Below are positions 12,450-16,661 of a stretch of 64,000 nucleotides of DNA, piece after piece (position 1 is the stretch's first letter; every line of letters starts with the position of its first letter). Location of the stretch: NCBI GenBank assembly GCA_010093815.1, contig ML996568.1. The stretch is one strand, 5' to 3'. The notes below the pieces were generated by a model. The model searched no databases, had not been told where the DNA came from, and saw nothing but the letters and a program-made list of their open reading frames with translations. A program made the translations under genes and the position numbers. This DNA is from Pseudovirgaria hyperparasitica (Eukaryota).

Positions 12450-13269
12450 TTAAGCTTCCTCAGGTTTTGGATTGCTGAGGGCGGCGAAGTGACTCTCAAT
12501 CTTTGACAATCCAAAAAAAATCATTCTCTCGCTTCGCGACTCTGCAATCCTCCAATCTCCATCCAATCGTACCACCTTTAAGCCCTAATTCTTGACCCTC
12601 AAAAGCACATGAATCAAAATCTCCAATGACAAAGCGCCCATCCTTGCATAGGATATTACTCGGATTGATATCGCAATGGATTATGCCGAGGCCGTGGAGA
12701 TGCGTGAGGCCGCGTCGGATATCGGTCAAACAAGCTGCCAAGCTGAAACTTCTCTGGCTTTTGCTCTCCTGGAGCAAGTCATGATCGTATCTTTCGAAAC
12801 AGAGACCGGATATCTTGCCATCGTCAACGACGCATCCGTGATATTGTGCGATATTGGGATGTGGAGATCGTCGAAGAATCTCACAGATTTGAGCTTCGTG
12901 TAACATTACGTCGCTCATGCGAGTAGATACCTCTGTATCTCCATAATCAATCAAGTGAGGCCGTTTAACATGATAGTGTAGAGCTGCGTCATCGGGTGCT
13001 CTGGTGAAGTGTGATGGGAAATCCGGCCAGATATTGGAACTGGGAATAGGAACAAGAGTAAGTAGTTGTAGATCGATTTCGGACTTCGCTCTAAAGCGGC
13101 GATCGCTTAGAGCATAAAGGTAGGAAGATTCATGTTTCGCGATAATCTTCGTATGCGAGAACGTGAGATCGCCGTATACAGTTTCGAAAGCTTCGGCATA
13201 TTCGACGACATGGGTGCTCTGGACACGTGAAAATCTGCATATATATATTTAATGTTACAAAAATACCAT
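12450..13269 (-). CDS. Small atypical fungal protein kinase with an apparent 1-nt frameshift in a T8 run near the C-terminus (possible pseudogene or sequencing error)
   Basis: Open frame from 13218: STHVVEYAEAF...IPSSNIWPDFPSHFTRAP...VKRPHLIDY...EAQICEILRRSPHPNIAQYHG...IIHCDINPSNI...IGDFDSC. Putative ATG at 13269 followed by a 48-nt GT-AG intron. Removing one T at 12513-12520 gives ENDFFGLSKIESH...EEA* (stop at 12450). Confidence 0.75.
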
Positions 13270-13490
13270 GTTGGGTGTTTGCAGTAGATATGGGGATGTT
13301 TGTCATGAAGCTTATATAAAGGTATCAAGTTTCTCGCAAACCCTAGGAGACCGCGTCTCTAGCTTGAATGATTAGGTAACAGCATAGATCTATGTGCCAA
13401 GCATATCGGGCGATGTGGCTATGCCAAATCCTTTGCTAGCCATTATAGTATCTCTTCTGGCGACTTGAATTTTCATAGACCTAATTCATT

Positions 13491-14131
13491 TTACGACCTA
13501 CCAGTGCCTGTATACTCCTGAAGCCATTGTTTTTTATCCATGATGGTCCCACTAGACGCCAAGAACGAGGTTATCTTGGTGTTCAATTCTGCCAGCAGTA
13601 TAAGCCTCATCCCACATCTAAATCACAAAGCGGGAGTTCAGTGGAGCTAGACTCACGTTCAAGTGACATTTCTGTCGCTGCCTGGAGGGAGTAGTGATCA
13701 GTATGTTCGTGGACTAAGATTAAGTCTGCGGGCAACCGCGTGCCTACAGCGAGTCAGGAAAACCTGCAGCGATCCAAAGGTCTCTGAAGCTAATAATACC
13801 AGCAGGTATACAATATATTACACCACTTTCCCCCCGAAGCTGTGCTACGAGCTTCTTCTGATAAAAACCCATTGGTCGCATAGAGGCGCCGTTCGGAGCT
13901 ACCGGATGTGTTTAGCTGGGAATGTATAACCGTGAAGTGGGTGGCTGAATCCATACGCTTATAATTGTGTGGATCGAGAGCCTTTGCCTTCACGCGACCA
14001 GAATCAGTGAGGATGTCATAACTGCGCTGTCGCTGTAGGGACCACTCTCGAAGACGAATCGCCAATCCGTAATTGACGCGGAAAAGCTCTTTCGGAACTG
14101 TCCGGAAGACATTTATAAGTGAGGGCGCCAT
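13491..14131 (-). CDS. Tse2-like ADP-ribosyltransferase toxin-domain protein (152 aa, 4 exons)
   Basis: Exons 14131-13957, 13898-13800, 13743-13657 and 13588-13491 splice with canonical GT-AG introns into one frame: MAPSLINVFRTVPKELFRVNYG...KALDPHNYKPPNGASMRPMGFYQ...IYCIPAGTRLPADLILVHEHTDHYSLQAATEMSLEQLNTKITSFL...TGRS*. The LFR / NGASMRP / LILVHEHTDHYSLQ motifs match my recollection of the ADPRTs_Tse2 family. Confidence 0.8.
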
Positions 14132-14708
14132 GGTTTCAGGAGAGATAGAGACAGAATGTTCGCCCTGTATTGTTTGTGCTTGGAAGATTACATTAGAGAG
14201 GGAGGTATGTGCGTGATGTTTCGTGGCTAAGGGATCCCGGATTCAGCGAGGTAGGGCCGATTAACATTAACCCCCCGCCTTCGCGCCGTATGAAACAACT
14301 TGATACCCTGTGGAGCACCACAATATTACCTCGAGAGTGCCCAAATATTACAAGCGGATATGCATTTATTGCTTTTATGCATTGCACGAGTATATGTATA
14401 TACATAGAGATCCAAGCTCTCGTGACGCCCAAAGAGGTTTACCAAGGGGCATCAATTCTCAATGCGCAAAGACCACCAAATCCATCGATTTTCATAACAA
14501 GAAAGATCGTTCACGGCGAAGAATCTGCAAATATTGCGTCACGGCAGACAATAGCCGTTGCCGCTCAATGGATCGCGCAGATCCAGAAGAAAGGTGCCTC
14601 ACAAATGGCGGGTATAAACGAAGTGTAGAAACAAAAACAAGGCATACGTACGTGGATAAGAGTCATAAGAAATCAAGATGTGAGAATCATGAGAGTTGCA
14701 GGAGGCAA

Positions 14709-16661
14709 TCAGTTGCGGAACTGTCCATTGCCCAGGCGTGCGCCGCCATGCCATCCAGCTTGTTGCCTTTGACTGGCGACTGTGAACGCGGGCTGTTGCG
14801 GCGCTGCAGACGCACTTCTGTATCCACCAGCTTGTGATCCGACGGGCGACATGAAGCTGCGCTGTGGCGGAACAGACGATGTTACCCCCCTAGGTGGCCC
14901 GCCTGGCGTCAGCGACCTTGGTGGCGCATCGTTGTGGGAAGTGTCCACACGACTCATCTCGTACGAAGGACCCTTCTGGGTTGTATAGTCGGCCTCGTAA
15001 GGCGACCACTGATCTGCCATCGGTGGAGGTCCTGGTGTTCGACGTCCCATTCCAGTGTTTGATCTAGGTGGACCGTCCATTGGACCAGAAGGGCCGCGGC
15101 CGGGGGCACTGAATGCTGTGTTTGAACGTGGAGGTGGGCGCATACCGCCGTAAGGCCCATTCCGGTTCGAATTTGATGTGACAGGACGTGACATCGGGGA
15201 GTAGGGGCGGTCGGTGCCTACTCTGTTGAAATCATTCATCCGTTCCAGTGGTGGCATCACTGGGATAGGCGATGAGCGTCCCGGCTCGTCGTAGCCCATG
15301 GGGCTCGCATAGCTGAGAAGTGGACCATCGGTATGAGCGCTATAGCTGGAAGATTGAGTCATGGATCGAGCCTGCATTCCTGATCTTTCGAACTCATCTT
15401 CAAACTCTGGCATCCTAGGTTGGCGATCATCTATAGAACCACCTGCAGCGGTATTGCTCCGTGTAGGCGGTAAAGATGAGTATGGCGGTAAGGTTGCCAC
15501 AGAATTGAGTCTTGCTAGCGAGGGTGTTGACATCGTGTCGTCGTCGTCAAATGTCGTGTTGAGCACAGGGAGGGTCGGTTGTTTGCTACATTGTGGTCGG
15601 TCTTCTTTCTTGGCTGCCTTTTGCTCATCCTTGATTCGTTTCGCCTCTGACTTGGCGATAGCCTTTTGTGTCTTGGCGCTGACGATACGCTCCAATCTAG
15701 ACTCAATCTTGCGTCGACAGTAACGCGCCAGGGATCCATCTGTGTTAGGGACGTGATGCCAAAGAAACAGAAGGTACAAAACAAGAGCGATAAATAAGAA
15801 CAGGATTTCAAAGGCCCAGATGACCAATGTGAAAGTCATAGTCGACAAAATGACTGTCTGCTCTTTGTTGGCTTCTGCTAGTGCCTCAATATTGACAAAG
15901 AACTGGGCAAATTTCGATCGGCCGTTTTCAGGTTGATGCTCACCCTCAGGAATGAGGTTGAGTCTCATAACAGACCAAAGAGTCATAGCATTGATAACAA
16001 CACGGGGACCTTCGGCGAATATGACTCGGATGGCGCCTGTCAAGAATCAATCAGTGACTGCCAGTAGGTGCGAAGCAGGAGACTTACCTTTGAACTGGAA
16101 GTACACAAAGAGCGCAATGTAGTTGACCCCCTTCTTACTCTTGGTGAGTTCAGCCAGGACAAGAAAACGTCGGAAGCCTTGACCCTGGTCCGGTCGTATA
16201 CTCTGGACGATGGCAGCAAGCGGGTCCATGTAAGTGTCTACAACACCACCCCTTCGCAAAGCTCTAATAGCTAGAACCCATTCAAAGGCTAAGAGGGCAA
16301 AGGAGAATATAATGGCCCCAGCAAAAATCCATTTTGCGTAAACGAATGGAATGACAGGCCGTACCTGGCTCGACCAACGATCGAATGCAAGAAGATTGAC
16401 TGCGGTGAAAGTGTCTGCGGCATAGACACCGATTGAAATGAGAGTAAGGATCCACAACCATACGTAAGAAAATCCAGCGAGACATGACTTGCTCCTAAAG
16501 TCGGAAAGTGTCTGCAATAGTTAGCACAAACAGCTACCCGAAGATTGTGTTGACGTAGACTGCCTGTTATAGCAAGCTGGACGCGATTGAGGACGTACAA
16601 TATATGCCCACTTCTGGTCCTCACTGACAACCTTCTCCGAGTCTCTACCCATACAACCCAT
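14709..16661 (-). CDS. KCH1: Fungal low-affinity potassium transporter, Kch1/Prm6 family
   Basis: MGCMGRDSEKVVSEDQKWAYI|TLSDFRSKSC...VYAADTFTAVNLLAFDRWSS...FRRFLVLAELTKSKKG...FAEGPRVVINAMTL...SLARYCRRKIESRL, then a long Pro/Ser-rich tail. Two introns. Confidence 0.82.

Follow-up and report, generated by a model that had tools for sequence, protein, structure and literature searches.

Does the minus strand of this Pseudovirgaria hyperparasitica DNA carry an intact gene of the Tse2 ADP-ribosyltransferase-like toxin family and, if it does, is the product a toxin used in conflict or an enzyme that works within the fungus itself? The initial annotation of the window (the whole 64-kb stretch of DNA that was analysed) had described a hidden gene of four exons, in which three canonical introns join short pieces into a stop-free protein of 152 aa, and had proposed that it encodes a stand-alone cytosolic toxin domain.

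The gene lies on the minus strand, with its ATG at 14131 and a TAA stop at 13493..13491. Its exons of 175, 99, 87 and 98 nt add up to 459 nt, that is, 152 codons plus the stop (Table 1), and our model has the same coordinates, strand and structure as the one read initially. When left unspliced, the ORF from the 14131 ATG is 113 aa long, which is the 113-aa fragment that had been noted in the ORF track. The spliced 152-aa product contains LFRVN, NGASMRP and LILVHEHTDHYSLQ, and thus all of the motifs (LFR, NGASMRP and LILVHEHTDHYSLQ) on which the initial family call had been made, and exon 4 agrees with the family consensus xLNxKITxFL...WL.

Table 1. Coordinates of the Tse2-family gene and of its two flanking features in the window
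Feature	Coordinates	Strand	Description
Exon 1	13957..14131	-	58 codons + 1 base; ATG at 14131; covered by contigs of X1 and X2
Exon 1, content	13957..14131	-	strand 0; strand 1 with LFRVN (R18); R28; D39
Intron 1	13899..13956	-	58 nt, GT..AG, phase 1; skipped by one contig each of X1 and X2
Exon 2	13800..13898	-	99 nt; P-N-G-A-S-M-R-P motif (N61, S64, R66), then a helix
Intron 2	13744..13799	-	56 nt, GT..AG, CTGAC branch-like site; contigs skip 56 nt
Exon 3	13657..13743	-	87 nt; GTRLPADLILVHEHTDHYSLQ with H103, E104, D107, H108, S110, Q112
Intron 3	13589..13656	-	68 nt, GTGAGT..CAG; contigs skip these 68 nt
Exon 4	13491..13588	-	98 nt including TAA 13493..13491; C-terminal helix LN.KIT.FL ... 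W-L
Kinase-like ORF	12496-13248		downstream of the gene; Pkinase profile 43-147 only
KCH potassium channel gene	14709-16520		upstream of the gene

Splicing was assessed with contigs from two public runs, X1 and X2, which belong to one sample of one study and whose records do not give the kind of library. Over positions 13200-14500 of the window, one contig per run skips 13589-13656, 13743/4-13798/9 and 13899-13956. Read on the plus strand, all of these skips run from CT to AC, and no other difference from the window was found. We read the contigs as assembled cDNA because the skip ends are canonical GT..AG, the runs not being recorded as RNA; the skips match exactly the three junctions that had been predicted. 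There is no in-frame ATG upstream, and the X1 and X2 contigs contain no joint between exon 1 and position 14500, so 14131 was taken as the start. A shorter intron 3 of 39 nt, which uses the first TAG as its acceptor, was rejected: the frame would close three codons later, and 68 nt are absent from the contigs. These contigs lack 13219-13266 as well (48 nt, with GT..AG ends when read on the minus strand) and continue into the downstream kinase-like ORF; they cannot tell one transcript from two.

The gene is not hidden in the databases. Searching with the 113-aa ORF, we found it already deposited as EJ05DRAFT_274469 (P0001), a protein of 146 aa from P. hyperparasitica (Dothideomycetes), which UniRef automatically names 'Tse2 ADP-ribosyltransferase toxin domain-containing protein'. 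All of its residues (146/146) agree with the 152-aa product, apart from which there is a single 6-residue gap. The deposited intron 2 spans 13799..13726 (74 nt) and has the same donor with an acceptor 18 nt further on; as a result, the deposited model loses a conserved G-T-x-L-P motif, which the 56-nt intron restores together with the six residues. Conservation of this motif is 85-100% in the gene's own clade and, for its Pro, 96% among the remaining family members; Pseudomonas Tse2 has the motif too. A profile built from fungal homologues gives 242.8 bits for the 152-aa form versus 218.6 for the deposited form. We rejected the 74-nt intron on three counts, the 56-nt skip of the contigs, the regained motif and the higher profile score, and regard the 152-aa model as the better one. 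The same gap as in EJ05DRAFT_274469 is seen in the Trematosphaeria protein P0005. The acceptor error at intron 2 may affect other automatic gene models too.

Family membership was determined by translating the exons and scoring them one by one against the Pfam profile PF18648 (ADPRTs_Tse2), whose gathering cut-off is 26.6 bits. Exon 1 matched profile positions 1-44 (18.3 bits), exon 2 positions 49-88 (19.6 bits) and exon 3 positions 90-116 (39.7 bits, E 9.6e-10). The three matches are collinear and exon 3 exceeds the cut-off by itself, while exon 4 alone gave no match; the deposited 146-aa protein reached 102.8 bits (E 3.1e-29, profile 1-137). The fungal profile, made from 40 fungal homologues, was then run on the 1525 ORFs of the window. 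The exon ORFs matched it at positions 1-59 (exon 1, 77.8 bits), 59-94 (exon 2, 42.4 bits), 91-121 (exon 3, 55.7 bits) and 118-148 (exon 4, 30.2 bits, E 2.5e-8). Because these four score collinearly and the next best ORF of the window has an E-value of only 2.6, chance is excluded. The PF18648 profile and the fold of a homologue, described below, both agree with the initial assignment to the Tse2 family. We conclude from gene structure and family that the 152-aa gene is, almost certainly, an intact, transcribed and correctly spliced member of this family.

The family is large: when 1.84 billion representatives were searched with a profile, 626 clusters had E <= 0.001, of which 383 had E <= 1e-10 and 60 had E <= 1e-30, clusters being counted at 50% identity. 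Fifty-nine named proteins come from five classes of Pezizomycotina (Dothideo-, Sordario-, Eurotio-, Lecanoro- and Leotiomycetes), and further members were found in Peziza and Drechslerella (Pezizomycetes and Orbiliomycetes), in three basidiomycete genera (Tilletia, Meredithblackwellia and Atractiella) and in the amoebozoan Flabellula baltica. Identity across fungal classes is 50-66%, and P. hyperparasitica itself has a second copy, EJ05DRAFT_446385. In the 50 environmental loci with profile hits, ORF fragments again have boundaries close to where the three introns lie, in 25, 15 and 13 loci respectively. This pattern of conservation suggests strong purifying selection on the family across fungi and as far as Amoebozoa. 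The gene under study is an ordinary member of this large and already catalogued eukaryotic family and adds little by itself.

Bacterial clusters with the family are listed in a protein atlas for Planctomycetota and Pseudomonadota. Two pattern scans of 185,579 species genomes found no close prokaryotic relatives of the eukaryotic forms: the first gave 22 pattern matches and no relative. One nominal match among the 31 pattern matches of the second, in a Gallionellaceae MAG, covers 15 residues in a frame that does not look genic, and was set aside as chance.

To order the family, we built a FastTree phylogeny from 127 full-domain rows. P0001 was excluded, as were four rows that nearly duplicate others in the set or are variant gene models of them. 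The tree splits into 60 and 67 rows at a branch with support 99. The 60-row clade consists of 59 short forms and one partial model, and holds the window gene and all named Leotiomyceta; on the sister side, 35 of the 67 rows have N-terminal extensions. Counted over 132 full-domain proteins, 40 have extensions of at least 18 residues. Of these 40 proteins, 23 start with M and combine three or more K/R with no more than one D/E in their first 40 residues, and 11 have a hydrophobic run. By their composition the extensions look like mitochondrial presequences or, for a few of them, like signal or anchor peptides, which we treat as a lead only. Variable C-terminal tails occur in some family members, and one locus, L012, has three copies of the family within 6.6 kb.

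The fold was predicted for the homologue P0002 from Byssothecium circinans (102/152 residues identical to the window protein, 67%), and not for the window protein itself, using a 40-sequence alignment. The AlphaFold2 model has a pLDDT of 92.1 and a pTM of 0.85. Foldseek against the PDB placed Tse2 first (5ako_C, E 3.5e-3, probability 1.00, TM 0.54/0.58), with no match at E <= 0.001. Tse2 is PA2702, an effector of the H1-T6SS of Pseudomonas aeruginosa, and 5AKO is its crystal structure with the immunity protein Tsi2. In a VIA-align comparison with 48,161 representative chains, the best match was again Tse2 (5ako_D, Z 10.3, rmsd 2.7 A, 111 residues, 21% identity), the sole chain with Z >= 8. Only two chains reach Z >= 5, the runner-up being DUF952 (CC0527, Z 5.7). 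The tail at Z 2.5-4.5 consists mostly of the ART superfamily (Tpt1 at 4.5, MbcT at 3.8, PltA, LT, DarT and scabin, and also pierisin, pertussis S1, TNT, TccC3, ParT and Arr), so that the structural searches, too, place the homologue with Tse2 and the ART folds.

Searches by sequence gave a fainter connection. Neither the single P0002 sequence nor a profile of clade A reached any ART among the solved structures, Tse2 included. A profile of the more diverse sister clade reached 5ako_C at E 0.12, a weak match, in pieces that align at L-[FY]-R on strand 1, F-x-x-P-N, I-P-x-G-T-x-[LI]-P-x-x-L and H-Y-[ST]; the stretches of Tse2 that correspond to the family motifs at this weak score are LTLYRA, PN, IPDGTDIPPDL and HYT. 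Sequence alone thus barely bridges the fungal family to Tse2. Taking profile and fold together, we conclude that the 152-aa protein is one Tse2-family ADP-ribosyltransferase-fold domain and nothing else.

Several residues are nearly invariant in the family. P13, R18, D39, P60-N61-G62, S64, R66-P67, P96, H103-E104, D107-H108, S110 and Q112 each show 85-99% conservation in either half of the tree, with R18, S64 and E104 at 87-99%. All ten of R18, N61, G62, S64, R66, H103, E104, H108, S110 and Q112 are kept by 89 of the 127 full-domain members, the window protein included. In the P0002 model, R18 lies on strand 16-21 and S64 on strand 63-66, E104 ends strand 99-104, and H108 to Q112 are on strand 108-113. 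The order of R18, S64 and E104 presumably resembles that of the Arg, Ser and acidic residue of the R-S-E transferases. The family does not have a [QE]-x-E motif and has H-E-H instead, and for this reason no canonical triad, R-S-E or H-Y-E, can be read with confidence. Clustered in three motifs, ten residues that are polar or small are conserved at this level in both clades, a pattern typical of an active site; judged by this pattern, the protein probably has one.

The 152-aa protein shows no apparent signal peptide or membrane segment, as judged by hydropathy and the homologue model, which agrees with what the initial annotation had said. Kyte-Doolittle means over 19 residues reach a maximum of 1.34, with 0.49 for the first window of residues, and in the P0002 model residues 5-9 are already a strand of the domain. 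The description of the gene as a stand-alone domain also holds, since fused long forms are nearly absent from the family. Of 7999 candidates of 430-2000 aa that were scored, only three proved to be such forms: a PQ-loop fusion, a variant gene model from Tilletia and an unnamed protein. The longest of the 150 best family representatives has 472 aa. None of these three long forms is an NLR fusion, which is weak evidence, and no NACHT/NB-ARC, HET or amyloid signalling motif is associated with the gene in the fused forms or among the window neighbours.

The gene sits among housekeeping genes. Beyond the flanking kinase-like and KCH channel genes, the window contains genes for Rpn3, Hsp70, a polyprenyl synthase, Vma12, an ankyrin protein and a second kinase. 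With these two flanks, no Tsi2-like immunity neighbour lies beside the gene. Relatives of the kinase-like or KCH neighbour were found in none of 54 related environmental loci (302 kb), and we conclude that these neighbours are not partners.

A different neighbour occurs elsewhere. Twenty-two of the 54 environmental loci carry, alongside the catalytic-type gene, a much more divergent gene of the PF18648 type. The two lie within about 0.1-1 kb of each other and are arranged in tandem, head-to-head or tail-to-tail. If the count is limited to the 21 loci that extend 1.5 kb or more to either side, 13 have it, several of these 13 being near-duplicates. ORF pieces of this paralogue score 52.3, 53.2, 38.2 and 40.6 bits against PF18648, all above the cut-off. 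It has lost S64 and R66 (N-G-A-[LV]-F-M-P-N) and most of the H-E-x-x-D-H block, and its N-terminus is basic and acid-poor. No such partner is encoded in the 64-kb window, where the ORFs of the divergent paralogue touch only exon 3 of the gene itself.

What the protein does has to be weighed against what is written about Tse2, the only relative that has been studied. According to passages of a 2025 review (PMC12133291), cells of bacteria, yeast and mammals stop growing when Tse2 is made inside them, and the mechanism of Tse2 is still termed unknown. Elsewhere, in passages of PMC6099711 and PMC10281587, Tse2 is termed an NAD-dependent ADP-ribosyltransferase. Because Tse2 arrests growth inside cells, a cytosolic homologue without a visible immunity gene is hard to reconcile with the same activity. 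In the literature searched, we found no functional study of a eukaryotic or fungal family member, in keeping with the initial remark that fungal members are uncharacterised. A 2026 comparative genomics paper (PMC13448219) mentions 'Tse2-like proteins' in skin fungi and, in the passages concerned, states that functional studies do not exist; a PeerJ paper (PMC7955679), in the part that concerns PF18648, merely lists it among ART families; and the word 'Tse2' does not occur within 300,000 characters of the text of Zhang et al. 2012 (PMC3482391).

The explanation that fits best as a whole, and that we consider reasonably probable, is a spliced gene of the Tse2 fold encoding an intracellular, endogenous enzyme. 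We favour an endogenous enzyme because there is no export signal, the transcripts are spliced, the surroundings are of the housekeeping type and purifying selection appears to extend from fungi to Amoebozoa. It is preferred over a weapon because of the 626 clusters, the wide range of taxa, the 50-66% identity across classes, the recurring intron positions and the housekeeping neighbours. The functional part, that the ART-fold enzyme is intracellular and catalytically competent, acts endogenously and has a conserved target, is held more tentatively, at slightly short of an even chance. The protein would stay inside the fungal cell and be catalytically active. By analogy with its fold, it would most likely use NAD+ to modify a conserved intracellular macromolecule. 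Its role would be endogenous, regulatory or conditional, and kept under purifying selection, rather than that of an exported weapon. Conservation, surroundings, the lack of NLR fusions and the presequence-like sister clade fit such an enzyme at least as well as they fit a weapon. We counted against it the features that the family shares with conflict genes: two copies in the species, the triple at L012, variable C-terminal tails and the degenerate neighbour in 22 of 54 loci.

The leading alternative, unlikely but with real arguments behind it, is the one proposed initially, a cytosolic toxin used in conflict. Such a protein could execute cell death during defence or allorecognition, could be a killer element, or could serve as a weapon that reaches other fungi or bacteria by non-classical delivery, and an unlinked immunity factor or tight regulation would have to restrain it. 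The closest solved structure is Tse2, which, as passages of PMC12133291 have it, is toxic across domains when inside cells, and in some genomes the family has several copies in local clusters. The divergent paralogue without S64 and R66, within about 1 kb in 22 of 54 loci, recalls a pair of toxin and immunity gene, yet the 64-kb window has no partner paralogue. The species name marks the host as a hyperparasite. Against the toxin reading, no signal peptide is apparent. The neighbours in the window are housekeeping genes that recur in none of the 54 related loci, and association with NLR, HET or amyloid motifs was not found among them or in the long forms. The sequence conservation is high for a gene in an arms race, the presequence-like N-termini of the sister clade are what would be expected of organellar enzymes, and the spliced transcript contigs come from an apparently ordinary culture.

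A bolder reading, which we rate as rather improbable, is that eukaryotes domesticated the Tse2 fold as a self-directed, regulated switch, with three arms that have not been described before as a system. The window gene would be the cytosolic catalytic form, the sister clade would be imported into mitochondria, and the degenerate paralogue would serve as an inhibitor or pseudo-enzyme subunit. For the lone catalytic gene here, this reading would call for an unlinked partner that restrains it, or for a conditional effector of growth arrest or death.

It is quite doubtful, in our judgement, that the protein is a relic of the fold, a non-catalytic binding or scaffolding protein that has kept the Tse2 architecture and lost the use of NAD+. 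A canonical ART triad cannot be assigned with certainty, the single-homologue and clade-A profile searches of the solved structures reach no ART, and the enzymology of Tse2 is itself unsettled, as the passages of PMC12133291 compared with those of PMC6099711 and PMC10281587 show. However, the ten polar or small residues in three motifs stay 85-99% conserved across both clades, and the degenerate paralogues found elsewhere show what such a loss looks like, whereas the window gene retains all of these residues. A chance chain of ORFs or a pseudogene, with its short exons as sole support, is already refuted and its probability practically nil: the frame is open over four exons, the canonical introns are confirmed by contigs, the collinear profile scores are far above the background of window ORFs and every conserved residue is intact.

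We return, then, to the intracellular endogenous enzyme as the preferred reading. A conserved, expressed and presumably intracellular eukaryotic family of the Tse2 fold with an intact polar constellation offers tractable material for finding a substrate, and poses the problem of how cells cope with a protein of this kind. Concrete leads are the sister clade with its presequence-like N-termini and, in other fungi, the degenerate paralogue that adjoins the catalytic gene. These two family-level leads and the corrected gene model, with its six regained residues, are the useful by-products of this work.

Among known systems, the cholera-toxin-like R-S-E toxins (LT, pertussis S1, PltA and scabin) give weak fold matches at Z 3.2-3.7. 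The fungal protein carries an Arg on strand 1 (L-[FY]-R), then the Ser of its second motif and, ahead of strand 5, an acidic residue, which is presumably the order found in R-S-E toxins too. It differs from them in having neither the S-T-S nor the [QE]-x-E motif and no parts for secretion or translocation, and in the low Z. DUF952 (CC0527) and the RNA 2'-phosphotransferase Tpt1/KptA are the next-best structures after Tse2 (Z 5.7 and 4.5) and are likewise small, minimal ART-fold proteins that act within the cell. Their Z is too low to separate kin from a common arrangement, their conserved residues differ, and no sequence similarity of the gene to DUF952 or Tpt1/KptA was detected.

Tse2 itself belongs to the same Pfam family, is a single domain of about 150 aa and thus alike in size, and gave the best structural match of the homologue model (Z 10.3 over 111 residues at 21% identity). 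The two share L-[FY]-R on strand 1, P-N, I-P-x-G-T-x-[LI]-P-x-x-L and H-Y-[ST], an alignment that is weak (E 0.12), and 5AKO is out of reach for a search with a single sequence or the clade-A profile. In contrast to Tse2, the fungal gene is eukaryotic, with three spliceosomal introns, and has neither T6SS or Hcp delivery nor a Tsi2-like neighbour; its H-E pair corresponds to Q-D in Tse2, which is followed there by an 8-residue insertion. Nothing essential sets the gene apart from the fungal relatives that carry the Tse2 name, for example CC80DRAFT_401956 of Byssothecium circinans, K469DRAFT_604466 of Zopfia rhizophila and EJ05DRAFT_446385. Some of them carry C-terminal W-rich repeats, which the window gene does without; they are 60-67% identical to it over the full length, of the same length class, and share its motifs and its 60-row clade (support 99).

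Of the 54 loci from environmental fungi (L001-L054), 22 pair a Tse2-like gene of catalytic type with a divergent PF18648 (ADPRTs_Tse2) paralogue no more than about 1 kb away. S64, R66 and most of the H-E..D-H block are missing from this paralogue, and its N-terminus is basic and poor in acidic residues. It may be a pseudo-enzyme partner. The 64-kb window contains no such paralogue. One 6.6-kb environmental locus, L012, carries two catalytic-type genes together with one degenerate paralogue, so local amplification can occur in this family.

Features of the Tse2-like gene, its surroundings and its relatives
Feature	Location	Strand	Remark
Intron 2, deposited 146-aa model	window 13726-13799	-	acceptor 18 nt too far downstream
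Further intron, 48 nt, GT..AG	window 13219-13266	-	skipped by contigs; between Tse2-like stop and kinase-like ORF
Kinase-like ORF	window 12496-13248	-	Pkinase profile positions 43-147 only; start and gene model tentative
Two catalytic-type genes and degenerate paralogue	L012:163-5835
Divergent paralogue, example	L003:5752-6286	+
Divergent paralogue, example	L006:5384-6172	-
Divergent paralogue, example	L012:3546-4452	-
Divergent paralogue, example	L038:1837-2492	-
W-rich C-terminal repeats	P0012, P0005, P0015, P0021, P0041; family alignment A1, columns about 300-400

Because its intron 2 acceptor is displaced, the deposited model (EJ05DRAFT_274469) lacks a conserved G-T-x-L-P motif. An identical gap is seen in the aligned Trematosphaeria homologue P0005, whose gene model may be wrong in the same way.

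Around the Tse2-like gene (window 1-30000) we found ordinary housekeeping genes, encoding Vma12, a polyprenyl synthase, an ankyrin protein, proteasome Rpn3, a KCH channel, Hsp70 and a protein kinase, and no secondary-metabolite, NLR or HET cluster. The same contigs, assembled from two public runs, span both the Tse2-like gene and the downstream kinase-like ORF; in the exon upstream of the 48-nt intron, no ATG is in frame with the kinase ORF.

Family members also vary at their termini. Some carry a W-rich repeat (W-x-W-S..Q..Y-Y-R-x-D..G-N..W) once or twice at the C-terminus, among them the second P. hyperparasitica copy (EJ05DRAFT_446385); the window's protein has no such tail. P0012 gave a weak DUF2510 match (16.6 bits, below cut-off). 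N-terminal extensions of 20-60 residues occur in the clade sister to the short forms (e.g., P0080, P0083, P0087, P0090, P0094, P0117 and P0204), which comprises basidiomycetes, Pezizomycetes, Orbiliomycetes, one amoebozoan and unnamed transcriptome proteins. Judged by composition, 23 of 40 extensions resemble mitochondrial presequences, and a few are more like signal or anchor peptides.
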